A DNA stretch of 64,000 nt. Origin: Phyllobates terribilis. Lineage: Eukaryota. The stretch is taken from assembly GCF_046119375.1 (NCBI RefSeq), contig NW_027362765.1, positions 286,192,001 through 286,256,000 of the forward strand. Direction: 5' to 3'. The notes beneath the pieces are model-generated. The model did no database searches. It was not told the DNA's origin and was given only the letters and a program-made list of their open reading frames with translations. Below, piece by piece: positions 2,926-23,900 of the stretch. The translations under genes were made by a program, and so were the position numbers. Position 1 is the stretch's first letter. Every line of letters starts with the position of its first letter.

Positions 2926-5900
2926 ATGAACCGCTGTGATTCAGAGTCAGAACCTATGGATGTGGAGGAGTCAAATCAGAACATACAGGACAATGTAAGT
3001 AAAATCTTCTGGATGTAAAGTAGGTTAAAGTTCTGCCATTTTGTAAATATTAGGCAAATGCTTTAAGTTATACAATGTATAACAGATATAACATTGGAAA
3101 AAAACTATACAAAAAGCTTGAACAGATGTGATGGAAGGTGTTTGACATACTTTTGCCCATACAGTGTGTATTATAATATTCCCATGACTTTATATATCTA
3201 CAATACCAGCATGTGTAATAAACTCATGGAAATATTATAAATCCCAGAAGAGTTTTATTATCATAAAGATGTACTGCACCCATGATGGTAAAAAACAATG
3301 CAGAAGATATAAACATGCATGTTCCCTGGATGTTAAAGGACAGTAAGTTCAGTAACCTCTACGACGTCATGCACTTGTATGTCCATCGTCTGATTAGGAC
3401 AAATTTATATCTTCTGATAGTAAACAATTAAGGTTCTCGTTCAATGACCACAAACAGAGGTTTAGCAAAACAATAAGTAATAAAGTGTGTGATAAAACGC
3501 TACTACATTTTATTAAGCAATGAATAAGCTTTATTTCCCAATACAAGAAAACCCCTGGAATATAAAACATACAGGTAGAGCTTACATTTCATGTGCTACT
3601 TCATTATTTAGTTTGGTAATTATGTTTTGTTTTACTTAGTAATAGAGCCATTGTTCAGATGTGGTGTGTATTTTGAATGAGGATCAGACTCTGTTCACAC
3701 CAACAATGCCTGATGGGCCCCATTGTCTATAATGGATTCTATTGGGTTTCCATCATATTGCATGTTATTTTACCTGGCATGTTGTGATATTTGTCCTGGT
3801 AAAAACAACAACATTTGTGACAAAGACTCCAAACGCAGCAGTCAGTGCATCCATAAACAGAACTTCACTTTGTTATAATACAACCCTGGACATATCAGAA
3901 CAACTATTATTATTAGGATTATTAGTTGTGTTTCTGTTACTCTCATTTCAGTTCAATAGAAACAGTATGAATATTGATAGAACCATCTCACCCTTGTGGC
4001 GGCTGCACAAACTTTAGGATTTTAATGATGTTTTCAGGATTACTTAAACAGTTGCAGAACAGACTAAAACCGTAATATAACAAACATAGGCATCTCCTTC
4101 AAGGGGGTCCGAAGTCCAACTAAATCCCTATGTATTAGAAAAGAGCTTAGTGCAGATCGCACAGTGCACAGCTCGCAGGGAGGGACACAGCAGGGACAAG
4201 CACAGCCCCTGAAACGAGTGTCACTAATGAAACTTCGTTTCAAGTAGGGGTCAGGGGCTGTGGCAGTGACCTAAGCCTCTGCCCCCTGCTCTGATGACGC
4301 TTCGTTTCAAGTAGGTGTCAGGGGCTGTGGCATTGACCTAAGCCTCTGCCCCCTGCTCTGATGATGCTTCGTTTCAAGTAGGGGTCAGGGGCTGTGGCAG
4401 TCATCTAAGCCTCTGCCCCCTTTTCTGATGACGCTTCGTTTCATCTAGGCGTCTGGGGCTGTGGCAGTGACCTAAGTCACTGCCCCCTGCTCTGATGATG
4501 CTTCGTTTCAAGTAGGGGTCAGGGGCTGTGGCAGTGATCTAAGCCTCTGCCCCCTGCTCTGATGACGTTTCGTTTCAAGTAGGTGTCAGGGGCTGTGGCA
4601 GTGACCTAAGCCTCTGCCCCCTGCTCTGATGATGCTTCGTTTCAAGTAGGGGTCAGGGGCTGTGGCACTGACCTAAGCCTCTGCCCGCTGCTCTGATGAT
4701 GCTTCGTTTCAAGTAGGGGTCAGGGGCTGTGGCAGTCATCTAAGCCTCTGCCCCCTTTTTTGATGACGCTTCGTTTCATCTAGGCGTCTGGGGCTGTGGC
4801 AGTGACCTAAGTCACTGACCCCTGCTCTGATGATGCTTCGTTTCAAGTAGGGGTCAGGGGCTGTGGCAGTGATCTAAGCCTCTGCCCCCTGCTCTGATGA
4901 TGCTTCGTTTCAAGTAGGGGTCAGGGGCTGTGGCAGTGACCTAAGCCTCTGCCCCCTGCTCTGATGATGCTTCGTTTCAAGTAGGGGTCAGGGGCTGTGG
5001 CAGTGACCTAAGCCTCTGCCCCCTGCTCTGATGACGCTTCGTTTCAAGTAGGGGTCAGGGGCTGTGGCAGTGACCTAAGCCTCTGCCCCCTGCTCTGATG
5101 ACGCTTCGTTTCAAGTAGGTGTCAGGGGCTGTGGCAGTGACCTAAGCCTCTGCCCCCTGCTCTGATGATGCTTCGTTTCAAGTAGGTGTCAGGGGCTGTG
5201 GCAGTGACCTAAGCCTCTGCCCCCTGCTCTGATGACGCTTCGTTTCAAGTAGGGGTCAGGGGCTGTGGCAGTGACCTAAGCCTCTGCCCCCTGGTCTGAT
5301 GATGCTTTGTTTCAAGTAGGTGTCAAGGACTGTGGCAGTGGCCTAAGCCTCTGCCCCTTGATCTGATGACGCTTCGTTTCAAGTAGGGGTCAGGGGCTGT
5401 GGCAGTGACCTAAGCCTCAGCCCCCAGCTCTGATGACGCTTTGTTTCAAGTAGGTGTCAGGGGCTGTGGCAGTGACCTAAGCCTCTGCCCCCTGCTCTGA
5501 TGACGCTTCGTTTCAAGTAGGTCTCAGGGGCTGTGGCAGTGACCTAAGCCTCTGCCCCCTGCTCTGATGACGCTTCGTTTCAAGTAGGTCTCAGGGGCTG
5601 TGGCAGTGACCTAAGCCTCTGCCCCCTGCTCTGATGATGCTTCGTTTGAGTATCCCAGGATGCACTGGGATTCTCAAACGAAGCATTATCACAGGAAACA
5701 GGAGAAAAAATATAATAATTAGAAAGTGTAGTTAGGGAATGGTAGGGAATTTTTAATACAAGTATAATAGAAAATAGCTTAGATTATGGCATTAAATAGA
5801 TAGGGATATAGAATGAAATTTAGATTGACTTTCGACTGCCCCTTTAACACTAAAAAGGAAAGTCATTCCCCCTCCTCCTTTGCCCCAGCAATGTAAGGCA

Positions 5901-8900
5901 CATCAGAGAAGTGTGGTGGCTACTCACAGGTCACTACAGTCAGTCACATACATACATGTGATTGGCTGCAGTGCTCATGTAACTTCTTCAAGGGATTTTC
6001 CAGGACCTTGATATTGATTTCCTGTTCTTAGGATAGGATATCAAAACCAGATCAGTGGTCTGAATTCTGGCATCCCCATCAGTCAGTTGATTGAAGGGGC
6101 TTGACAGCCCCTGATGCAATTGTAGATCACCCTTACAATGCGAGTAGATCGCCATATTTGTCATTTTGCTGTTTTAGGCATCTTTGCAGTTGCTTAGGTA
6201 ATCCTGGAGACCTCTTCAATTCTATGCCAGGGGGAGCAATACCCTTAATGATGTATGTGCAGACGGTCTGGAGCCGCTGCAGGTTTGACATTGCGTGTTA
6301 TGCAGCGTCAAACCCGCAACAGCCAGATGTTACAGCATAGTGGATGGGATTTCTAGAAATCCCATGTCCACTATGCGTATCTGGGCACCTGCGGCTCACC
6401 TGCAGAAACTGCCATGCAGCACGTCTTTCAGACCCGCAGCATGTCAATTTCTCTTGCGGGTCCGCATGTGGACTTTCCCCATAGACCTAACCTCTATGAG
6501 GAAAAAAAAAATATGGCGCTGCTCATTTGCATAATGATCGGAAGCCACGCGGCTGTTCCACAGCCTTGGGGCCGCAGGCGGCTTCTGACCGTCCGCACAT
6601 ACCCTAATATGTAGCTCCAATTTATGTTCCTGCTAATCCTTTGTAGATAGTGGTCGATAGTGGACAGGGCAGATTGGGACGTGTTACCTCTAAACTGACC
6701 AAGATAAGCAATTCATAAATATTGCCAATTAGTGCGGTATAGCAGTCAGATACAAAGTGGCATATAGCATCTAGATCATGGATCAGTAATATCTGGCACT
6801 AATGCCACATGGGTCATGTTTACCCAGCACACTGGATAGTGAGCAAATACAACAAAAAAGGATGGTGGCCATTGATCTAGATCAGTGGTCCCCAACCTTT
6901 TTTGCACCAGGGACCGGCTTGAAGCAAGATCATTTTTCCATGGCCCAGCAAGGAGGGGGTGGAGTGGGCGGGGCTTTGGTCATATGGGGGCGGGGTAATG
7001 GAGGGATTTGGAGTTTAGTGCATACTTATCATATAGTGTAGACCAGGTCCCCGCCAGGAGCTATGCCAGGAGCCCCACATAATGTGCTGTGCCAGGAGCC
7101 GCATCACTGAGGCCCCATCACGCCCTGCAGCAGGACAGGGCAGCTGTCCTGACAGCTGCTGTTCAGCTGCATTTACTTCATCCCAGGGGAGGACACAGAC
7201 TGTAGTGGGCCCCTGTGCAAGAAATTTTTTGGGGCCCCCCCCGCCCTTCATAAGGCAACAAAGTTATGTAAACATAACCCCCCCATGTGCATCTCTCACC
7301 CCCCCATGTGCAGCTCACCCCCGTGCATCTCTCATCCCCCTCCGTGCATCTCTCACCCCCCCGTGCATCTCTCATCCACCCCCCGTGCATCTCTCATCCC
7401 CTCCGTGCATCTCTCATCCACTCCCCGTGCATCTCTCATCCCCTCCGTGCATCTCTCATCCCCCCCGTGCATCTCTCATCCACCCCCCATGCATCTCTCA
7501 TCCACCCCCCGTGCATCTCTCATCCACCCCCCGTGCATCTCTCATCCACCCCCCGTGCATCTCTCATCCACCCCCCGTGCATCTCTCATCCCCCCCGTGC
7601 ATCTCTCATCTCTCCCCTCCCTCCCATGTGCATCTCTCCCCTCCCCCCATGTGCATCTCTCCCCTCCCCCCATGTGCATCTCTCATCTCTCCCCTCCCCC
7701 CATGTGGATCTCTCATCTCTCCCCTCCCCCATGTGCATCTCTCATCTCTCCCCTCCCCCATGTGCATCTCTCATCTCTCCCCTCCCCCCCATGTGGATCT
7801 CTCATCTCTCCCCTCCCCCATGTGCATCTCTCATCTCTCCCCTCCCCCCCATGTGGATCTCTCATCTCTCCCCTCCCCCATGTGCATCTCTCATCTCTCC
7901 CCTCCCCCCCATGTGGATCTCTCATCTCTCCCCTCCCCCATGTGCATCTCTCATCTCTCCCCTCCCCCTCATGTGGATCTCTCATCTCTCCCCTCCCCCA
8001 TGTGCATCTCTCATCTCTCCCCTCCCCCCATGTGCATCTCCCATTCCCCCCACTCCTAGTTAATTGTATTTAAAAAAAAATAAAACTTGTTATACTTACC
8101 CCCATGCGATCCCTGCAGAATCCTGGCGCTCGTCCAAATCGCTGACACCAGGTTCTCCTGACTTCCGGCCATGTGACGGCGCCGTCACATGACCGGAAGT
8201 CAGGGGAATCATGAAGGTGCTGCCGCAGCAGCGCAGCGCTAAGATGTCCCGGACCCGGTGCTTAGCATGCGGCCGGGGGCCCCATGAGGAGAGAGACGCA
8301 CAAGAGGGGGGCTCCGAGGGGGCTCCTACCGGCCGGGCCCCATACTGGAGTCAGGGCAGTCATGCCCTGATGGCAGCCCTGCTGGAGGCTGGAGGGGCCC
8401 CCTCTCCCCGCGGACCGGCTGAAAAACCCCAACGGCCCGGTCCTGGTCCACGGACCGGCGGTTGGGGACCTCTGATCTAGATTGTATGATACTATAACTT
8501 AGTTTAGATAAAATCCTATCAGGGCACATACACATCATAGAGAATGGTCCCATTTTGACAGGTAGTGAATCTCCATGTAATACCCATACATATTTGATTT
8601 GGAAAAATTTGCAGTAAGTGTATGTGAGTTTATGTTAGACATAGTAAAACCAAGCCCATATGTTCTATAAGTGACTGTCCTTTGTTCTCCTTCAAAGCAG
8701 AATAACTGTATGGACAACGAAAAGATGGAGAAGAAAAAGTAAGTTTTCTTTGTAAATAAAATTATAACTAGTGGGCAATCCTATGGATCAGAGCAACAAG
8801 GGTTAAATTGTGTTGACTTTTACCGATGCAGTTGTTAGTAAGGAAGAACACACTATGAACTGGGGACTGGGTTATGGGTGCCCAAGGTTTATTGAGACAC

Positions 8901-11900
8901 ATGAGACTCATGGAAAGTGAAGGCTAGCCCATCTTGTAAACATTAAAGGGGTTGTCCAGTGAAAACAAATGATCACATATTTTTTATCACTGTTAAAATG
9001 ACGTGGCAGTGCGCATGCTCAATCGCTGCTCCATTCATTCCCTATGATATTTTTCCCAGCAGTTCCATAGGGAATGAATGGAGTGGCAGCAGGACATAAA
9101 AGTGCCCCGTCAAGGATAAAAATTCCCCATTCTGCTAATCAGTGCGGGTCCCAGCAGTCAAACCCTGGCGATCATTAAAGAAGCACTCCTCCCATCAAAG
9201 TTTTTATCGTCTTAGTATATTGTAATCATCATATTATATAGCATTGTGTAGTTACAATTGCTCATTTTGCCTTTCTACTCAGCTAATTCTTCTCTTTTGT
9301 CTGGTCTATGTAGAAACAGGAAGTCTCTTGTCCCTGCCTTTATCATTTCCCTCTTCAGCTCCTGACCAAGCTGCTCCACTCCTCCCCCTGCCAGGAACCT
9401 TTGCAGTGACGTATGACTCATACAGGGAAAATTGACCTCCTGTTTCTACAAAGAGCTTAAAAGGATTCAGCTAATCAGTTTTTAATCACATGATGTCATA
9501 GACCTAAAGGAAGACAGAAGGATTAGCTTTGTAGAAGGGCAATATGAGCTGTTGTAAGTACACAGTGCTATATAATATGGTGACTGCAATATATTAAGGG
9601 GATAACAATTTTGACCGGAGTGCTTCTTTAAGATATCATCTATCCTTTGGATAGGTGATAAATTATTTTCACTGGATGGCCCCTTTAGCGATGCATGTGA
9701 TTCAATGGCGTCAACACAGAGGGCATTGCAGTTTGATGTGTATGGGGCTGTGAAGCTTTACCTTGTACAATGAATAGGCTTTATTCACTGAAACTGGAAA
9801 ACATAGTTAAAGCTATTAAAGAGGTTGCCCTTTTCAGAAAATTTTGGGTGTGAGCTTTAGTTGTAAAAATAACCCTCCCCCCTTGGGTTCAGCACCCTGA
9901 CCGTCACTGCCCTGGTCTCTGTTTGTCTGCACATCTCTGCAGCTCTGGCAAATTAGAGGACACAAGCTGCTGAGCTCACCGATTGGCTGCAGAGCTGTTA
10001 AAGTGACGTCAGTGCTGCAGACAAACAGGAATCGAGGGCAGTGATGGACAGTACACTGGACCCGGGGAGGAAAAGTAATACTCAGTTTGTTTTTGTTTTT
10101 TTTATCTATTGAAGCTTATAGACAAAAGTTTTTGGAAAGGGAACAACCCCTTTAAGGAGGGGCTCAGCATAGTAGTCACCATTTATGACACTGCAGAGAA
10201 GGGATCAAGTCAGTGTAATCTAAAATATGACTTTTCTCCTCCAGTAAACGCAGAGTGAACAGAGAAAAACAAAGAGAAAACTTAGTGACAAGTGGAAACC
10301 TCTTCATTATCGCCTTTAAGAATCTGCTGCAGAAGGAGAAGGCTACTAAAGAAGTCACGCTTCACTACTTCGAACGGGTACGTGTAATAATATTATGAAT
10401 CTTGGGATATATTAATGGTTAGAAAAAATACTAAACCTCATCTTAATAGAATCATTTATAAGATAATATGGCTGGTAAAAGTAGAAGTGTCATCTATAAC
10501 AACCAATAAGATTCCAACTTTTGGTGAAAGCTGTGATTTGATTGGTTGGTACTGAAAATACTTCCTATTTAAGTGGATTTTATTAAAAAGCTATGTTTTA
10601 TGTATGTATCTTTATGAACAGTAAGACTTGTGAAATCATACAACGTATGCATGCTGTACCATTTATTTGTTCATTTCTCTCACCAGTTCCTGCATTCCAT
10701 CTTCTTTATTGGACATATTAGCATCCCACCAGTCACACCTAGTGAATTCCTTCCTGACGAGAAGATTGACCTATTTAGACGTATTGTACCAAAAGCTTTC
10801 AATGAGTACAACACCCACCTCCCTTATTACACCCCGTACTCCATTTTCCTAGAATATGTAAGTGTGCTTCTTTCATCACTGCTACATCCTTATTTCCTAG
10901 TGTTATAGAATGACTACTACTGCCGGACACAGAGCAGTATTACTCATACATAGCCATATAACGAGCGAAAGCTTTGGACAGTCTTTACTTGTTAGAAAGG
11001 TCCTTCTGTTGGGACCCCCAGGTAACTGCTCTGCACTCTATGAAAAAGATGAGGATCTTTTAACTTAGAATTCTCTAACTAGGCATATGAAAATAGTTTG
11101 TTTCTCCAAACTAGACAAACCCATTAACCATTTCTACAAAATGCATAGCTTAAAAGGTTTCAAGTAACTGAAACCTACCTGGTGGTTACATTTCTACTGA
11201 TAAAATCCAGAGTGCCATTTATTAGATTGCATAATGATAGTTTTCACCTTCTGCTGGTGAAAATTTAACAATTATAGCAATCTCATACAATTTATGTAAA
11301 ATGTAAATTGTAGAAAAGATCATTGTTTGGGATGTTAACACTTGTAAGGAAATCAAAATTACAATTTTAAAACATCCACTCACACACCCATCACCCATAT
11401 AAAGGGTGGGGGGGGGGGTATTATTCTGAATGAACACAAATACAGCTTCTATAGGAGGCAAGTGACAGTTACCGGAAGTGTGCGAGTATGGTTCATCAGG
11501 GAAAAAATCTCCAGCGAAGAAAAGTTAAAAACTTGGATCTTCCTTTATTAGACAAAGATTAAAAATGGTTCAAAAACATGTAGAATTAACCACCAGCTAG
11601 TAATCCCAGTAACGCGTTTCGACTCAATAAGTCTTAACCCCTTTACGACCTTGTCAGTAATAGTCCGTAGCTGCGCCCTGGGCCTATAGGGACAGCTACG
11701 TACTATTACGCGCGATCTTAAATGCGGTCCCGCGACCAAAATCGCGGTGACCGCTGTGAGGTAGCGCGATTGATCATGTTGAGGGGCACTCACGTCACCG
11801 GGTCAATTAAAGCACATATGCAACGTTTTCCGGTAATCTAAAGTCCAGCAGTTTATTACACATCATAAACTGCTTATAACATAGTCCATTTCAGTGGCTC

Positions 11901-14900
11901 ACAGGAATGTTACACATGTAATATCCTAGAGCCTTTGAGTGGCAGCTATGCCCGCTTGGCTTCAGATACAGACTTCAGCAAGGTAACAACATCAATGTCC
12001 ATATCAAGCACCGTCTTTTACCTTTGCCGGGTCTAGCTGCTTCCGTCAACTCTGTTCTGCCAAAGCTGTGGTTTAAGGCTCACCAGGTGTGGCCTCTATG
12101 CCTCATGCCTTCCAGGGCTAATGGTGTCCCAGGCACAGAGATCAGGTCTCTTGACCCCCCCCCCCCCCCCCCCCGCTTCAAAAACCACCCGGATATATAT
12201 ATCCCTCTGTGCGCACAGGACCTGTGATGATTGTTATGCACACGCCCGGACTGACTGGCGTGTGCGGGAGTAGTGGTTCCACTGGACCGTGCCGGAGAGT
12301 GAATGCCTGGAGGGGCGTAACTAGGTATTCACCCGATCCGACCAGGGTCGCACGACGGCATACGACGCCAGTGCACCAAGGAGGAACCGAGCAGAGGGAC
12401 CAGGTGCTACTCCAGGACAGACCCCGGACACGGCTGTTGTCCCACACAGGGGAATACAGGAACAGGCTGGTTAGGCTGGCGCACAGACTGGTGGGTATAG
12501 GCAGGCACGACTGGCATGCAGGCAGGCGGGTATGCAGGTAGGGGGGTACAGGCAAGCACAGCTAGAGTGCAGACAGGGAGGCACTAGCAGGTAGGAACAC
12601 AGGCGGGATAGGACCCAGTACACACTGGGACTCAGGAACAATACAGGCAGAGGGGTACAGGCAAGCACAGCTAGAGTGCAGACAGGGAGGCACTAGCAGG
12701 TAGGAACACTGGCGGGATAGGACCCAGTACACACTGGGACTCAGGAACAGAACCACAGATGTGGCGGACAAACACAGCAGAGTGAGGCCGCCCAGAGAGG
12801 TGAGCGAGAACAGGGCAGGACAAGACCGCCTGGAGCGGTGAGCAAAAGTAGAGCAGGACAAGGCCGCCAGGAGCGGTGAGCAAAGGGTCAGAGCTGAGCG
12901 AGACTGCCGGAGCAGTGAGCAAGAGTAAAGCAGGACGAGACCGCCTGGAGCGGTGAGCAAGAGAGAAGCAAGACTGCCGGAGCAGTAAGCAAAAGGATAA
13001 GAGCGGAGCGAGACTGCCGGAGCAGTGAGCAAAAGGGTAAGAGCGGAGCAAGGCTGCCGGAGCAGCGAGCAAAGGAGTCAGAGCAGGCTAGAACCGCCGG
13101 AGCGGTGAGCAAAGGAGTCAGAGAAGGCTAGAACCGCCGGAGCGGTGAGCAAAGGAGTCAGAGCAGGCTAGAACCGCCGGAGCGGTGAGCAAAGGAGCCA
13201 GAGCAGGCTAGAACCGCCGGAGCGGTGAGCAAAGGAGCCAGAGCAGGTTAGAACCGCCGGAGCGGTGAGCAAAGGAGTCGGAGCAGGGAGGACAGGGCTC
13301 TGTTCACACGGAACAGACAGGAAGAGAAAGACAGAGCCAGATACCCACAGGGTACTTGCAGTGAAGTAGCGAGTGGACCACAAACTCACAAACGGGAGTA
13401 CAGAGACAACAAGCAGGAGTAGGTACGAGTTCAGACTCTGCAGAAAAAGGAAGGGAACGGACATAGAGGCAGAACAGGTAAAGGATAGGAGAGAGTTCAG
13501 ACTGGAACTGAGTGTACAGAGGAGACCGACACTGCAGAGGAATACAGGAGCGGGTCTGGGAATACGGCCCCCAGAGAGGCAGGACGAACAGGCAAGGAGC
13601 GTGTTCAGACAGGACAGACAAGATACAGGAGCGGGTCTAGATAATCGGCCCCTAGAAGGCGGGAGGAACAGGCTAGGAGCGTGTTCAGACAGGACAGACA
13701 AGATACAGGAACGGATCTAGGTAATCGACCCCTAGAAGGCAGGAGGAACAGGCTAAGAGCGTGTTCAGAGAGGACAGACAAGATACAGGAACGGATCTAG
13801 GTAATCGGCCCCTAGAAGGCGGGAGGAACAGGCTAGGAGCGTGTTCAGACAGGACAGACAAGATACAGGAACGGATCTAGGTAATCGACCCCTAGAAGGC
13901 AGGAGGAACAGGCTAAGAGCGTGTTCAGAGAGGACAGACAAGATACAGGAACGGATCTAGGTAATCGGCCCCTAGAAGGCGGGAGGAACAGGCTAGGAGC
14001 GTGTTCAGACAGGCCTGGAAATACAGCCTCCAGGATAGGCAGACAAGAGAACACAGACAGGACTCAGTTCAGACACGGGAACTGATACCGCAAGGCAGGA
14101 GACATAGACAGGACTCAGTTCAGACACGGGAACTGATACCGCAAGGAAGGAGACATAGACAGGACTCAGTTCAGACACGGGAACTGATGCCACAAAGCAG
14201 GAGACAAAGAACAGGACCTGGCACCTTCAGAGTGCAAGCACACACTGAATGAAACACTATGCTCAGGCAGGGATAGATGGGAGCAGCTGAGCTATATACC
14301 AGGTGACAGACAGCAATAGGCTGAGGACGCACAAGGGGTGTGACCCACAGCAGGTACAAAAAGCAGGAAGTGATCGGGCGCCGCCCTTAAGCAGCAGAAA
14401 CAGACACAGACAGCATGGAGGGAAGCCAGAGAGACATTCTGGACTGGAGATCAAGTGCGCGCTCTTGCACAGTGGGAGATGGACCACCATGCAAGGACGC
14501 CGCCAGGTATGTTACAATGATGTCACAGTCATGTGATCAATCACCTGAAGGGGAGGTACGTGGTCAGTCAGAACACAACTCCTCAGACATTTTGGCAATG
14601 CAGCAAGCCGCTTCATTACATATCCTCCCCCTCTTGTTCAAGCCCATGGTACTGAACACATGATATACACAATCACATTATAACCTACGGTTCACACAGA
14701 GTCCATGTACTTGACGTTTGCGCTGCTCAACCCCTGGAACATTAGTCATCAACATTAGCCCATTCCTTAGGGACCTACCATCTGTCATTGTCACTAACTT
14801 CGTTAAGTCACATTTCCGAGTCGTAACCTTGTCAGACCTCCCTCGCTCCCAGCGGTCAATACAGCAGTGCGACTCACTTGCCCTTGTATCTAAGGTCAGG

Positions 14901-17900
14901 TCCGACTCCGTACTGTCTCGTACTCTATTGGGTCGTTTGTATGGGCCTCTCAGACCTGAGTTACTGGAGGACTCACTACCTCTAAACCCACGCCAACCAT
15001 CCTCAGGACATCTTGAAAGGTCTCTAACTTCTGTTGTAGCCGTTCTATTATTTGGAGGGCCCTTTCTCTGTTTGGTCTCACAATTTCTAGACGGCTGCCA
15101 TCTTCTGCTGCTCAGGCGACGCTGTCTTTCCATTCGCAGTCTGGCGAGATTCAACTGTTCTACCTCTCGCAGGTAGGTCACTCGGTACTCTATCAGCATT
15201 CGTATATATAAAGATTTTCTTCCATTCCTACAGCGGAGAATGACACCATGCCGTCTTCATCCGGTATCCAGTACTGATGATCACGTGGACTACTTACTTT
15301 CATCACACCAGACTTCTTTACCATCATTTGCATGGCTTGGCCCTTTCTCCCAATGAGCTTTCTTAACAGAGCATGAGGCACCCAGATGACTTCTTCCTGT
15401 AGACTTTGAGCTTTTCTCATAAGCTCCAGTTGTCTAATGGCTTGTTCTGTCTTCAACCGGACAATCCGCTTTGTGCGAACACATCACCAGTGCATGTCAC
15501 TTAGGACAGCCACCCTCTTCACTGTGACTTCGGTTGTGGACAGGACCAGCAGCTGTTTAGCTTTTGAGGTCAAATACACCTTACAGGCTCCCACGGCCTT
15601 CTTAAACTCTTCATGCACTGGCTCTCTGGTACATTCTTCTCTCAAATCTTCAGGTACATCTATGAGGCACTTGTACCGAGAAGTTTCTGTCTCACCAGTG
15701 GTCTCCAAACAATCATCTGGCTCAGGTTTCAGGGACAACTGACTTTCAGATTCTTCATCCTGTATGCTTCCCCTGAGCTGACTCTCAGCTATGAACTCAA
15801 GAATTCTCCTCTTGACAACTTCCATTCCATACTTATCTTCTTTTAACACTTCCTCAGCTCTCTTCAGGTCCACCTTCTCATGGTATAGAGGATTAAGCGC
15901 ACTTGTTTGCCCTTTTCCTTCTCCAAGGCAACCTTGTTCACTGATTGGTACTTTACCAGGCGACCTTTGAGCTCGAAAACTTCTTCCTCTAGCTCAGCTA
16001 CTCGCCTCTCTGTCTCCAATGCTCCGACTCGACTCTCGACAGCCAGTCTCTCAAGCCTCTCTTGCTTCAAATGGGCTTGTAGCGTCTCCTTGATCTCAGC
16101 TCTTACATCCACCGAATCATCCAAGCTCGCATTATTCGAGAAAGTATTTGCTTCATACCTCCTTTCTCCAGTGGCAAACTCCTGACCCTGGTCTGTGGCT
16201 TCTCCGATAGACTCCTCCATCTTTTTCTGCTCAGCTTCCATCTTGCTGATTCTATCCTTAAGGCATGTATTTGCCCTCTGGAGATCATCACAGAACGTCT
16301 TCAGCTCCATCACCTGAGCTTCCAGTCCTAGGATCTTTCTGCGGAGATCATCATTCTCATCACGGGTGTCCTGCAGAGTGGTCTCAATCACTTGGCGCAT
16401 GTGCTCTGCATCCGCCTCATCATTCTCTAGTTTTTTCTTAACCTTGAGGAGATCCTCATAGTCCCTCTTGGTTTGTTGCAGGTCCCTATTGTGTTCATCA
16501 TACTCCTCCTTGGATTCACGCAGCACCCGGTTGAACTGTTCACGCAGAAACTTCGTCCTTCAGCGCCCCTTTTAAGGCAGATAGCTCCCTATCCCGCTGG
16601 TGTAGACCCTCGTCCAGCCTTTGCTTCTCCGGCATCAGCTGCTTCACCTGCTCCTGAAATCTCTGCACTTCCTTTTTTGTGACCTCTGCTTCCTCCGCAT
16701 TCACAGAGTCTTTCTTCACTTGGTTCAGCTCTGACTGCAACAGGGAGAAACGATTTTTCATCTCATTCAGCTCATCTTCAGACTCCTCTTTCTCAAGCTT
16801 CAACTGCAAAATTTGGTTTTGCGGAGGTCCTCTTTATTTTTCTGGAACATTTCCTTCCATTGGTTGATTTCCTCACTGCTTTCCTCCAGTTCTCACTTCA
16901 AGTTCCTCACAACCTGGTTAATTTTCTGCCATTCAGACTCCAGGCTCAGCTGGTCCTGGGACACGTTCTCCATGTTTTTCCTTAGTTGCTGCCTGGCAGG
17001 CTCCAGCTCTTGATCATGATTGGCCACCTCCTCTTCCATCATGATCTCCTCTGCTTCTAAAGGAGGATCCACACTCGGAATAAAGGCACACAGCATTGCA
17101 TTTTCTTTATTGCCGCTGCAGTACACCGCATTAAATTTACGGCGCCATCTTACCTCAGGGTAGATGGCGCTGTCATCCCGGGGGCTGTCGCCGCCCCCCC
17201 CGCACCAGCGATCGCTGTGATTGGCTGTTCAATTCACATCGATCGCACTGCTCATAGCGAGACTGCGAGGTGACAGGGCGGTCACAGGCTTGTGACCTGC
17301 CTGTCACCGCCCCATGACCCCCTGCAGTGTATGTCCAGGTCCCAGCCAGCTCTGATTGGAGCGATCGATGATGACATCGATCGCTCCAATCAGAGTTCTT
17401 GACCATAGGTGATAGGGTGGTCACAGGGCGGTGACCGGCTTGTGGTCCGCCTGTCACCTCCCTGTGACCCCCTGTGGTGCATGCCCAGGTCCCAGCCATC
17501 TTTGATTGGTGCGATTGATGTCATCATCGATCGCACCAGAGTACCTGACCGGGAGGTGACCGAGTGGTGACCGGCCTGTGACCTGGCTGTCACCACCCTA
17601 TCACCCCCCTGTGACTGCCCTGCAGATCCTCACACTTGGTGAGGATTTCTACAGAGCGGTCACGTCTGATCTGCGCTGTGCTGGGCCTTGTAGTGCCACA
17701 GAACCTTCTGTGACACTATAAGACCTTTCTCCCACCTGCTCCGGTGTTCGGTCTTCTGAATCTGCTGCTCCAGTGTCCTGGATCTCCTGCTCCGGTCTAC
17801 TCGGGTCTTCGGTCTCCTGCTGCTGCTGGGCTCTTGCTTCTGATCCTGCTACTGATGCTGCTCCTGCGCCTGCTCTTAATCCTGCTGAAAAAGAACAGAG

Positions 17901-20900
17901 AAGACTTTGGTAAGTCCATCTCTGTTCTCCCCTCATCCACCCCAATCCCCCCTCCCCCCCTCATTTTACCGCCCTCGCCATCCCCTTTTTCTGCCACCGA
18001 GCGCATTTTTTTTTCGTGCATGCTGCAGTAGCCGAGCGCTGACCAGTGACTACAACACTGATCAACGTCTGTGCTCGCTGTTTTCCAGGACTTTTTTTTG
18101 CCACTGTCCACCCACCCCCCACTTTGCACCACCTCCGTGCGTGCATCCAGCAGCCGCTGAACGTTGATCGTTTACGCAAATCACCGATCAGCACTCGCGC
18201 TTGCTACTTTACACTTTTTTTTTTCCACTTTTTTTTTCCACTAACCTTTTTTTTTTGTAGAGGGTGCTGGGCCTTGCAGTGCCACAGAAGCCTGTGATAC
18301 CACAATCGCCGCTCCTGCTACAGAAGATATCTGACAGAAGACAACTGTAAGTAGGATTTTTTGATCAGTCCTCATCCACCCCAATGCCCGTCTCCCCTCT
18401 CCTCCTTCCCATCCGCCTTTCTGCCACCAAGTGCTGATCAATACTTGATCGTTCGACTTTTGTCTTTTTTTTTCGTGCTTTCTGCAGCGGCTGAGCGCTG
18501 ATTAGTGACCACAGATCACTGATCCGCACTTGTGCTCGCAGTCTTACCCTCCCCCTCATTTGCACCACATCTGCATGCACACCCAGCAGCTGCCGAGTTG
18601 ATTGGTGACATAGTTCACCAATCCGCACTCGTGCTCGCTGTTTTCACCACCTACGGTTGTTCCTTTTTTTCCCAGAAAAGAAAAAAAACAAAAGTTCACA
18701 CCAAGCACACTGACACACACAAACTCTAAATAAAGTACACGCAACATATACATAACAAAAAATGTCCCGCTCATCCCAAACTCGCTATTCAGTGGAGGAG
18801 GCATACGCTTTCCTTGCCTCCGACACTGACAGCGAGGATCCCACATTTCTTTACTTTTCTGATTCCTCGTCTTCCTCCTCTTCTTCTTCCTCCTCCTCTT
18901 CCTCTTCAGGTGCTGCTGGACCGCCACGTAGTCGCCCCAGGAGAGAAGATGAGCCAGCGCCCCCCACTACTGACCCCGTATGGACCTCGCCCCCCGAAAA
19001 TTATGAGCCACCGATTCCTGATTTCGCGGCAGAATCAAGAATCAAGTTTGACACTACCAGCCTCACAGAAATGGACTTTTTCAAAGTCTTTCTCTGAGGA
19101 TTTTGTAAACCTCATGGTGGGCCAAACTAATTTGTATGCTCATCAATTTTTGGAACAAAACCCCTCTTCATCATTTTCTAACTCGTCTCCTGTAGACACA
19201 GAAGAAATGATGAAGTTTTTGGGCCTGGTCCTTCATATGGGGATCCTGAAGAAGCTAGAACTTCGGCAATACTGGAGTGTTGAAGTTTTGTATAACACTC
19301 CAGTGTTCCGAATGGTCATGACCCGGAAATGTTTTGAGGCCATCCACAAGTTCTTGCATTACAACGATAATGCTAGGTGTCCTGCACGCGATGAACTGAA
19401 CTTTGATCATCTTTCCAAAGTTCGGACAGTCATCGAGCACTTCAACAATAAGTTTGCTGAAGTGTATGTACCCCAAAGGGACATCTGCGTGGATGAGTCC
19501 TTAATCCATTTTATATAAGGGCGGCTTAGATTACGGCAGTACCTGCACAGTAAAAGGTCCATATACGGAATCAAGCTGTATAAACTTTGTGAGAGTACCT
19601 CAGGGTACTCTCACAAGTTTAGAGTTTATGAAGGGAAGGACTCCCGGATTGAACCCCCTGAATGCCCCCCTGTCCTGGGTGTGAGTGGGAAAATTGTGTG
19701 GGATTTGGCGCATCCACTGCTAGATAAAGGTTATCACCTGTACAGGGATAACTTTTATACAAGTATCCCACTCTTCAAGTCCCTCTCTGCGCGACGTACC
19801 GCAGCCTGCAGTACCGTCCGCAAAAATCAGAGAGGCCTCCCAAAGACGCTAATTGGGCAGCGGCTCAGAAGGGGTGAGAGCAGAGCCCAATGTAGCGACC
19901 ACCTGTTGGTGGTCAAGTACAAGGACAAGAGGGATGTCCTTCTCTTGACCACCATACATGGTGATGGCAGCACCCTCAGCACTGTACGAGGTTCCACTAC
20001 ACAGGTCATCAGACCAGACTGTGTAGTGGGGTACAACAAGTACATGGGGGGAGTTGATCTCTCTGATCAAGTCCTCCAGCCATACAATGCTTTGAGAAAG
20101 GACAAGGTATGGCATAAGAAGCTGGCTGTGCACATCGTTCAGATGGCAATGCACAACGGTTTCCTTCTGTCACAATGTGCAGGCCAGACTTCTACGTCGT
20201 ACCTTCACTTCCAGGAGACAGTTATCAAGGCATTGATATTTGGCAGCAGTGACGGAGTGGGCCCCACTACTTCCAGAACTGAAGGACCTCAAATTGTACC
20301 AGGCCAGCATTGCCCAGGAGAGGTCCCTCAAACAGGAAAAAAAGGTAAGTCACAAAAGAGGTGCAGAGTGTGTTCCAAAAGGGAAATACGCAAGGACACC
20401 ACTTACCAATGCGACACCTGCCTTGACAAACCTGGCCTGTGCATGAAAGAATGCTTCAAAAGGTACCATGCTTCCATGCACTACTAAATTAATTTCTGAC
20501 GTATGACAACCTGACGTACACTACACAACTGACGTAGTGTTCGTCAGGTTGTCCTACACAACTGACGTATAACACTACATTCTAACATTTACAAATCGGG
20601 TATCCGTTCCAAAAAGGGGGCACTTATTGGGCATTTCCACTGTTTACGCACATCAGGGGCTCTGAGAACGTGACATGACGCCCGCAGACCATTCCATCAA
20701 AGTCTGCATTCCAAAGCGTCACTCCTTCCCTTCTGAGCCCTGACGTGCGTCCAAACAGTAGTTTTCTCCAACACATGGGGTATCAGCGTACTCAGGAGGA
20801 ATTGGACAACAGATTTTGAGGTCCACTTTCTCCTGTTACCCTTGTAAAAATATATTTTTTTTTACATTTTTGGGGAAAAAAAATTGTTTTTTTTTATTTT

Positions 20901-23900
20901 CAGTTTTCTGTGAAGCACCTGGGGTTCAAAGTGCTCACAACACATCTAGATAAATTCAATGGGGGGTCTAGTTTACAAAGGGGATACTTGTGGGGGGTTT
21001 CCACTGTTTAGACACATCAGGGGCTCTGAGAACGTGACATGAAGTCCGCATTCAATCAAAGTCTGCATTCCAAGGCATCACTCCTTTCATTCTGAGCCCT
21101 GCCGTGCGCCCAAACAATAGCTTTCCCCCACATATGGGGAATCAGTGTACTCAGAAGAAATGGCACAACAACTTTTGGGGTCCTATTTCTCCTGGTACCC
21201 TCGTGAAATTTAAAAAATTGCGGCTAAAAGATCGTTTTGTGGGAAAAAAAAAATGTTTTTTTTCACGGCTCTACGTCAAACTTTTGCAAAACACTTGGGG
21301 GTTCAAAGTACTCATCACACATCTAAATAAGTTCCATAAGGAGTCTAGTTTCCAAAATGGGGTCACTTGTGGGGGGTTTCCACTGTTTAGGCACATCAGG
21401 GGCTCTCCAAACGTGACATGGGGTCCGCTGTCAACTCCAGCGAGTTTTGCATTGAAAACGTCAAATGGCACTCCTTCCCTTCCGAGCCCTGCCATGCGCC
21501 CAAACAATGGCTTTCCCCGACATATGGGGTATCAGCGTACTCAGAAGAAATTGCACAACAACTTTTGGGGTCTAATTTCTCCTGGTACCCTCGTGAAAAA
21601 ATTGGTGTCTAAAGTACAATTTTAGTGAAAAAAAGTTAAATGTTCATTTTTTTCTTTCATGTTCAATTAATTGCTGTGAAGCACGTGAAGGGTTAATAAA
21701 CTTCTTGAATGTGGTTTTGAGCACCTTGAGGGGTGCAGTTTTTAGAATGGTGTCACTTTTGGGTATTTTCTGTCATAAAGACCCCTCAAAGTCACTTCAA
21801 ATGTGACGTGGACCTTAAAAAAAGATGGTTTTGTAAATTTTGTTGTAAAAATGAGAAATCGCTGGTCAACTTTTAACCCTTATAGCTCCCTAACAAAAAA
21901 AAAATGTTGTTTCCAAAATTGTGCTGATGTAAAGTAGACATGTGGGAAATGTTATTTATTAACTTTTTTTGTGCGACATATCTCCCAGATTTAAGGGCAT
22001 AAAAATTCAAAGTTTTAAAATTGTGACATTTTCAAAGTTTTTGCCAAATTTCCATTTTTTTCGCAAATAAACGCTAGTGATATCGTAAAAATTTTACCAC
22101 TGTCATGAAGTACAATATGTCATGAAAAAACATTCTCAAAATTAGGTTGATCCATTGAAGCGTTCCAGAGTTATTACCTCATAAAGTGACAGTGGTCAGA
22201 ATTGTAAAAATTGGCCTTGTCATTAACGTGCAAACCACACTGGGGGGTAAAGGGGTTAATCATGATCTGACTTAAGTCGAAACGCGTTGATGGGACTCTT
22301 AACACCCATTTACTAGGATTACTAGCTGGAGGTTAATTCTACATGTTTTGGAACAATTTTTAATCTTTGTCTAATAAAGGAAGATCCAAGTTTTTAACTT
22401 TTCTTCGCTGGAGATTTTTTTCCCTTTGTGCTGCTATCCAATCGACCCGACACAGGGCGGCACCCTGCAAGGATTTTCTGGGGAAGAAACTACTACTCCA
22501 CTATTGTTGAGCTGAATCTCCCTTCTATTTTCCCTTGTTGTGATTCATCAGTATGTTGCACCTATGTACACTCGATCATATACTATTGGGGCTTCTCTGC
22601 AATGGTTTTCAGTATGAGATGATAGATTGGGATACACTTGTTCTTACTAAAAGAAAGGCCTAGACCTTGGTCATTGACAAATTGTCCCTCAGTCAAAACC
22701 TCTGGGAGTGGTAAATTGTCCTTCTAACGCGAGGGGAAGAGCAACTAAAATGTTGCTAGAGTGGAGTCGTAGACCAGGGGTCAAGAAAACATGACAGAAT
22801 GGCCAGTGAGGAGATGCAAGAAAAGATTTCCTGTTAGAATGAGTGCTGATCTCAGGGATAAAGATGGCCAAAGTGTTTTGGTTATGACTCACAAAGTGAA
22901 TGACCATCAATAATCTGGGGCTAATAACAGATGTGTGATGCAGAAGGTTGCCTTGCGGCAGAATATTAGTCTCCTCGGTGACTGCTGATCAGGCCTGTTC
23001 TGAACCAGAAAGAACTGAGCTCAAACCTAGGAAATCACTGTGGGCTGGTATGGAATAAAGTTAAAGTTGCCCTGTAGGCCTAATGCATGGCACAGTCCTG
23101 CGTTGTGTTGGATTATAGGTTTGAAGACAAGTAGGGGTGGCATAACTAAAGCCTTTATCAGAGATAGGGTCTAAGTAAAAGGCAGCCTGGTTGTTAATGT
23201 GAGTGTATAAAGGGGACCTGGAGAGCGGTTTGGGCAACCTGGCAAGGGTGCCTGTGAGGTGTTATTATGAGAGGAATGTTTGAAATGGAGCCTTAATCAT
23301 GTCACTCTTAAGGGGCCGGGAGCTTAACAAAGGGATAACAGAGATAAAAAACTGGAACCCTTGAGACCTTGAAAATCATAACACAGAAGCCTTACCCGCA
23401 GTTAGTGTCCACATGTATGGCATTACTGTAGTGGCGAAAGCCCACTTAATTTATGGGGTGCATGTCTCCAGAAGCACAAGCTGGGCACAATGTATTGCGC
23501 ACTAAGCTGGCATATTTGTAATTTTCACTCTGTATCATCAGCTCATGCTTATTTCTGGAAAACCGTGAGACTAAAATAGTTGCTGCACCAGTAGATAAAT
23601 TCATTAAGGGGTGCAATTAGGTCACTTTTGTTTTATTTTTCTGCTGTCCTGGCACCTTAAAGGCTCTGTAAATGGCACCCGCAAACTATTCCAGGAAAAT
23701 CTGTGCTCCAAAAGTTAAATAGCACTCTTTTTTATTTTATGGCCCACTAGTATAAAATTCTATGAAACACCGACACCCCTAGGTGAATTCACTGAGAGGT
23801 GTAGTTTATTAAATTTTGTGGTGAAGGATCACGCATGATCCCACTGATGCCACCACATGTGAATAACCCATACCTCACCTGGCATCACTATTACGTCGGA

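Follow-up and report, generated by a model that had tools for sequence, protein, structure and literature searches.

We analyzed a 64,000-nucleotide stretch of the Phyllobates terribilis genome (RefSeq assembly GCF_046119375.1, contig NW_027362765.1, positions 286,192,001 to 286,256,000 of the forward strand; hereafter the window), in which a copy of a non-autonomous long terminal repeat (LTR) retrotransposon, carrying a fusion of fragments of the host genes CGN (cingulin), LONP1 and FXR1, lies nested in a single piggyBac DNA transposon. The piggyBac occupies positions 11638–22255, between TTAA target duplications at 11634–11637 and 22256–22259, as the original prediction for this locus had stated. 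Its left end (11638–11754, plus strand), with the terminal inverted repeat (TIR) CCCCTTTAC, joins the sequence from 17125 onward in seven of ten relatives, and its body (17126–22255, plus strand) comprises the 3′ subterminal repeats, the right TIR and a broken transposase at about 18763–20487 (Pfam DDE_Tnp_1_7) that is split over three frames. The LTR element (TG...CA, 11755–17125, minus strand) is 5′-deleted and flanked by CCGC target duplications, the left one at 11751–11754, inside the piggyBac left end, and the right one at 17126–17129.

Read along the minus strand, this copy begins with the first 14 bases of its 5′ LTR (17112–17125), a deletion having taken the remainder of that LTR together with the primer site and the frame's start, and continues with a remnant of the element's linker region (17039–17111), a cingulin rod fragment with joined exons and internal deletions (16163–17038), a coiled-coil segment (about 15925–16162), a short piece of an earlier LONP1 exon (15891–15923), a LONP1 fragment of 42 codons that crosses one exon junction (15759–15883), and an FXR1-derived part that ends in a stop at 14678 (14678–15694) and comprises KH0, a helix, KH2 with its GxxG loop, a second helix and a trimmed C-terminus. 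A polypurine tract follows (14621–14639), similar to that of the Gmr1-type elements L211–L213, and then a 3′ LTR of 581 bp, whose 5′ part (14517–14620, beginning TGTAATG) and 3′ part (11755–12231, matching both LTRs of other copies) are separated by an unrelated solo LTR (12232–14516) with a 5-bp ATGAT duplication. The order of the cargo, its lack of introns, the solo LTR and an AATAAA motif at 11857–11852 are all present as originally described. The ATG near 17096, which had been taken as the start of the gene, is an internal codon in the linker remnant, the true start having gone with the 5′ deletion, and what had been read as a short 3′ untranslated region with its own poly(A) signal is in fact the 3′ LTR, the AATAAA motif of which recurs in the LTRs of other copies.

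The identities of the three fragments come from PDB and protein searches, and alignment to host exons confirms the proposal that the cargo derives from mRNA fragments of three unlinked genes, with CGN on contig C6, LONP1 on C1 and FXR1 on C3. The cingulin piece (17038–16163) shows 94.7% DNA identity to the host's spliced CGN exons, the main LONP1 piece (15883–15759) 88.8% identity to joined host exons, and the FXR1 piece (15694–14832) about 68%. In the window copy, exon junctions are crossed at four of six positions in CGN, at the single position in LONP1, where a 41-kb host intron is skipped, and at four of the seven scoreable positions in FXR1, two further FXR1 junctions being left out of this count. 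The additional LONP1 piece of 33–34 nt at 15923–15891, just upstream of the main one, had been missed by the original prediction; its alignment score is 45 in the window and 52 in copy L031, compared to 37 for the best of 200 shuffles of the L031 stretch. The roughly six disabling lesions that had been predicted were located as four frameshifts (near 16810, 16550, 15900 and 15210) and two stops (near 16895 and 15486). The donor of the coiled-coil segment was not found among proteins of 212–676 residues, in the best 120 of 303 matches of 677–2,000 residues, in the PDB, or in the Atlas (best score 0.88, below threshold). We also considered as host gene a second FXR1 match, L070 (C1:217602175-217602630; 90% protein identity, C-terminal), and rejected it on finding no other exons within 100 kb upstream; it is probably an ordinary retrocopy.

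Evidence for the carrier comes from other copies of the cargo. In most of the first 20 copies, an LTR of ~570 bases (TGTAATG...CTCACA) stands at both ends, and in these first 20 copies a primer site follows the first LTR and a polypurine tract precedes the second. A 4-bp target duplication was found in 22 of the 25 copies with both ends located, and a 5-bp duplication in none of them. Taken together, the CCGC on both sides of the window copy and its 14-base remnant of the 5′ LTR indicate that an LTR element inserted into the piggyBac and that a subsequent deletion removed the remainder of its 5′ LTR along with its primer site and its start. For the structure itself we have very little doubt: the carrier is a non-autonomous LTR retrotransposon, and the window copy is dead and nested in a single piggyBac.

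The original prediction had instead proposed a Pack-type piggyBac, in which the fragments were assembled into one transcription unit that travels inside the DNA transposon. One mobile unit it is, but not one that travels in piggyBac. TIRs and a TTAA duplication do surround the cargo in the window, as in a Pack-type piggyBac, but no repeated composite copies were found, and the cargo brings mobility signals of its own, namely LTRs, a polypurine tract and the CCGC duplication. When the cargo was used as a DNA query, 40 places were scored, among which only the window extends into the piggyBac side; the left junction of cargo and piggyBac was scored at 40 places as well and occurs in the window alone, so that in both sets the composite is single-copy, the very outcome that the original prediction had named as speaking against its proposal. 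None of 87 other cargo loci, a number that includes some segmental duplicates, adjoins the window's piggyBac ends. Conversely, none of the ten piggyBac relatives carries the cargo: seven read straight through the site, which is empty, and in the other three the end is absent from the stretch fetched, in one case owing to a solo LTR of the cargo family. We note that cargo copies L046 and L065 have piggyBac 3′ repeat sequence within ~1.5 kb, but away from the element ends.

The family to which the window copy belongs is very large. A chimera-specific 18-mer has 2,395 exact matches in the genome, compared to 0 for a control, and since this 18-mer, although picked for being common, is present in only 34 of 51 sampled copies, the true copy number exceeds 2,395. 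In the same genome, tRNA-Ala(AGC) genes have 3′ ends complementary to the primer site, and the pattern of this site has 1,012 exact matches; of the first 30 of these loci, 10 were taken as another element type and the others as the cargo family. The tRNA genes themselves include a tandem array of tRNA-Ala(AGC), tRNA-Met and tRNA-Asn genes from C3:6544528 onward (unit ~1.3 kb); among the 100 places listed of 318 matches, 98 lie in this array. From the primer-site loci we drew an unbiased set of 34 copies, chosen by primer site and position with coding content ignored, and CGN, LONP1 and KH sequences occur together in 30 of these. As in the maize element Bs1, spliced fragments of at least two unlinked genes lie between LTRs. 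The element is about 5 kb long, and its frame fills most of the internal region. Identity between paired LTRs ranges from 90 to 99.7% across copies, and the longest frame rises with this identity (rho 0.55, p=0.004, n=25, excluding six copies that lack paired LTRs and three whose LTRs were poorly called), with unbroken frames of 931–1,012 codons in the three youngest copies. Copy L051 has a frame of 1,069 codons, in which Pfam finds FXR families only, and neither a reverse transcriptase (RT) nor an integrase.

In a tree of the KH part, the window copy falls in the oldest, star-like burst, which is followed by a ladder of younger subfamilies and by several young clades spreading in parallel, all with the frame kept; host FXR1 lies 0.64 changes per site away. 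Host CGN, in turn, falls inside the oldest group of copies, and the younger subfamilies lie further from host CGN than the old ones. The median number of synonymous changes per site (dS) to the host is 0.18 for CGN and 0.23 for LONP1, compared to 1.3 for both KH domains, which suggests that FXR1 was captured long before the other two, with LONP1 and CGN probably following just before the oldest burst.

Several other loci bear on the composition and count of this family. In the stretches fetched, L195, L198, L217 and L224 are derivatives without CGN, or without LONP1 and the coil, and since L195 combines 98% LTR identity with a 505-codon frame that includes the KH part, CGN may be dispensable. 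Loci L047–L050 represent one insertion, with identical flanks and an AGGA duplication in all four loci fetched, and ~23 of the 40 scored cargo places (on C9, C122, C348, C463, C815 and other contigs) match like L047–L050; this insertion probably gained its copies as part of a large segmental or tandem repeat.

To read selection from these copies, we used the unbiased set of 34 to contrast changes found in a single copy (private), which represent decay after insertion, with changes common to at least three copies (shared), which were inherited through transposition. Stops number 41 among private and 0 among shared changes, compared to 614 private and 352 shared missense changes (p=2e-8), and 24 of 25 shared indels are in-frame, as against 49 of 104 private ones; of the 105 shared indels in the LTR and leader, which are non-coding, only 20 have a length divisible by three. 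The ratio of nonsynonymous to synonymous change (dN/dS) in KH0 and KH2 is 0.26 for shared and 0.85 for private changes (p=5e-5), whereas the corresponding values for CGN, LONP1, coil and linker are 0.79 and 1.07 (p=0.07). The KH contrast persists however the threshold, CpG filter and thinning are set (12 of 12 settings), and a CGN contrast is seen in none of the 12. Furthermore, of the two glycines of the GxxG loop, one is conserved in 30 of 31 copies and the other in 31 of 31. A dN/dS of 2.6 for CGN between subfamilies was absent from the unbiased set and has been dropped. These data show that, in the lineages that spread, the frame is preserved and the FXR1 KH domains are under constraint, while the cingulin and LONP1 parts drift.

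The FXR1-derived part keeps KH0 and KH2 with its GxxG loop from the FXR family, and lacks the tandem Tudor/Agenet domains and KH1. Its predicted fold is KH0, a long helix, a KH domain and a further helix (predicted local distance difference test 83; root-mean-square deviation 1.5 Å to the KH0 of FMRP), and both helices, which match the coiled coils of FXR1, are kept, without a shared proline.

The elements of the other type fetched by primer site are candidate sources of the missing enzymes. Paired LTRs, with a polypurine tract resembling that of the cargo family, occur in three of six, and in one an unbroken frame of 1,501 codons encodes SCAN, followed by integrase and then RT, an order by which we presume it to be a Gmr1-type Gypsy element. 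Primer site, polypurine tract and duplication length are common to the cargo family and this intact element with integrase before RT. Gmr1-type Gypsy elements are candidate helpers that likely supply the enzymes and would mobilize the cargo family in trans. Loci with a SCAN domain were also considered as helpers and set aside, with no LTR match in 30.

The chimera is shared between species: 20 listed sequencing runs from 8 studies, under five organism codes, hold the chimera stretch, none of them on record as RNA. Among the 4 of these 20 runs in which contigs were examined, run X17 (organism D) has one contig that passes from CGN through the coil and LONP1 to FXR1, with 113 differences over ~980 bases, and run X18 (organism E) has one that joins the linker to CGN; both also hold 5.3-kb contigs resembling the spliced host CGN mRNA. 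The chimera is thus probably transcribed, and the selection described above is what argues for translation of the frame. In public protein sets, near-identical chimeras appear under a poison-frog label, named “uncharacterized” or “cingulin-like”, and with copies annotated in this way, measurements of CGN, LONP1 and FXR1 expression in these frogs could be confounded.

Taking these observations together, the explanation that we favor, and hold to be distinctly the most probable, is a non-autonomous LTR element of thousands of copies with a spliced frame from three genes, the KH domains of which were conserved during its spread, and the protein of which likely acts on the element's own RNA, with enzymes likely provided by Gmr1-type elements. 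That the protein acts in cis seems to us a reasonably good supposition, as copies whose frame had a stop or whose KH domains were damaged seldom gave rise to further copies, unlike what would be seen with a freely shared protein. In such a cycle, the LTR would drive a single transcript, and pieces of host mRNA would have been taken up by template switching during reverse transcription, the mechanism described for animal LTR-mediated retrocopies in the cited passages of PMC5131818. The enzymes would come from Gmr1-type elements that use the same primer. The protein might bind its own mRNA while being made, and once bound might stabilize the element's RNA or bring it to the helper's particles, and the coiled coils may serve as a spacer or oligomerizer.

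A number of observations weigh against this explanation. A comparison of 46 helper-type and SCAN loci gave no LTR homology between the cargo family and its candidate helpers, and the similarity of the N-terminus to helper gag is confined to low-complexity, Q-rich sequence; the N-terminal 379 residues found no relative among 1.84 billion proteins, apart from one unrelated weak match, leaving “gag-derived” unproven. No FXR1-only ancestor was found, and the order of capture is read from divergence. The runs that hold the bridging contigs are only guessed to be RNA, and these contigs are therefore no proof of transcription. The alignment used for the fold prediction included host FXR sequences. 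Finally, a first selection test, on 32 copies picked by FXR1 protein score, gave no overall contrast (p=0.73); we consider this test uninformative, because its copies had been pre-filtered for intact KH domains, such that private KH changes were already removed.

Four other explanations were considered. The protein could be a decoy acting in trans which, without Tudor domains and KH1 but with both helices, poisons host FXR1/FMR1 complexes that help to silence transposons. The retention of both coiled-coil-like helices, with no shared proline, is in line with this, as FXR1 networks need these coils according to the part of PMC10635158 cited here, and fly Fmr1 is described as acting in piRNA silencing in the cited part of PMC5454977. 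However, broken copies could freeload on a protein that works in trans, but no stop is common to three or more copies, and the silencing role is taken from fly Fmr1 and is not established for frog FXR1, so that we regard a decoy as unlikely. A domesticated host gene, consisting of one or a few old, useful insertions under host-level selection, with the thousands of copies as retroposed by-products, is of much the same low probability, if not marginally lower. The constraint does sit where a working gene would have it, on the RNA-binding domains, runs from other organisms contain the chimera, and public protein sets list several copies as genes. Nevertheless, the tree shows one subfamily following another and several young clades expanding side by side, all of which retain the frame, and the increasing distance of younger subfamilies from host CGN fits repeated reverse transcription and not a stable source gene. 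We find it improbable that only an open frame was selected, for RNA stability or ribosome transit, with the low dN/dS of the KH domains reflecting RNA-level constraint or a recombination artifact: the CGN, LONP1, coil and linker parts do keep their frame with little amino acid constraint, but the KH domains have a dS to the host of ~1.3, near saturation, with a dN of 0.20–0.43, the opposite of RNA-level constraint, and, for KH2, differences between subfamilies of the element give a dN/dS of 0.25 (confidence interval 0.12–0.53). Lastly, assembly of the chimera in, and travel with, the DNA transposon, as the TTAA-flanked ends around it would have it, can be dismissed as next to impossible given the CCGC duplication, the empty sites, and the absence of these ends from other cargo loci and of cargo from the piggyBac relatives.

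Outside the cargo, the piggyBac is itself flanked by inverted arms of 114 bp (96%) with a palindromic core (11499–11612 and 22310–22423), which represent an older inverted-repeat element interrupted by the piggyBac; an Rfam scan of 11000–23000, including these arms, gave nothing near the gathering score. The solo LTR at 12232–14516 belongs to an abundant family with internal repeats of 40, 51, 80 and 109 bp, which also interrupts cargo copies L045, L117 and L191. Further upstream, the window holds a 67-bp tandem array of 21 copies (4233–5647) and a pyrimidine-rich minisatellite (7279–8051).

A second, very young LTR family without enzymes was observed, in which a SCAN/zinc-knuckle gag is in frame with an SRSF1/9-type RRM (PDB E value 3e-22), at loci L235–L244 (e.g., L239, C1:336678000-336686000), L142 and L146. 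The SRSF1/9-type stretch stands behind gag in eight of ten SCAN-bearing loci fetched, which had been picked partly by frame length, and an SRSF-like piece occurs in 11 of 30 SCAN loci. Four loci share the same 579-codon frame, with LTR matches of 98.4–100%, and the primer site differs from that of the cargo family. It is tempting, if rather doubtful at present, to suppose that host RNA-binding domains (the FXR1 KH domains and an SRSF1/9-type RRM) were enlisted more than once by Gypsy-derived parasites of these frogs, as cis-acting proteins that gain their RNA entry to helper particles. By such a strategy, a non-autonomous retrotransposon would come to have a protein of its own, made from host sequence.

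The usual view of non-autonomous LTR elements is that they are passengers without a protein, and of captured gene pieces that they are accidents of use to the host only; here, a captured RNA-binding module was kept by selection while the element reached thousands of copies. It thus becomes possible to test whether host genes can be domesticated by a transposon for its own use, and the dated layers (FXR1 old, LONP1 and cingulin recent), together with the ladder of subfamilies, provide a record of exon shuffling in progress.

Among known systems, the architecture recalls defective oncogene-transducing retroviruses, in which the enzymes have given way to spliced host sequence that continues the frame from the element's own start, and which depend on a helper. 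Unlike these, the frog element has neither an envelope gene nor a sign of infectivity, and it has a Gypsy-type primer site, germline amplification, and an RNA-binding cargo instead of a growth gene. We found no description of the frog element in a literature search, the scope of which did not extend to subscription journals, supplements, or repeat libraries such as Repbase and Dfam, and a term search of the main text of a poison-frog genome paper gave no gene capture, chimeric elements or FXR1 (PMC11152451). The Pack-TIRs and Pack-MULEs, reported in the clawed frog too, likewise hold host sequence between DNA-transposon ends in the passages cited from PMC8277862, but the insert in the window is a self-contained, spliced retroelement with its own target duplication. 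The Burro and Ogre LTR elements are high-copy Gypsy elements with host-like domains in frame with gag, as the cited portion of PMC6431247 describes them; they are giant and keep their enzymes, whereas the frog element is about 5 kb long and its donor exons are traceable. Animal LTR-mediated retrocopies from flies, fish, chicken and mouse (Tan et al. 2016, PMC5131818) are partial mRNAs between LTRs, some acting as non-autonomous elements, and include multi-gene chimeras, with four genes in one mouse case; in the part of that study cited here they are single- or few-copy loci, with no frog in its main text and no family of thousands of copies. Along with these retrocopies, the closest likeness is to maize Bs1, an LTR element that fuses pieces of three unlinked genes in one frame and is reported to be transcribed and translated, with secondary retroposition (cited passages of PMC13317346 and PMC5131818). 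Bs1 is given a copy number of one to five in the latter (PMC5131818), whereas the frog family has at least 2,395 copies, a vertebrate host, and purifying selection on the captured KH domains in its spreading lineages. What is new in the frog element is thus the scale of its copy number, its vertebrate host, and selection on a captured domain during spread.

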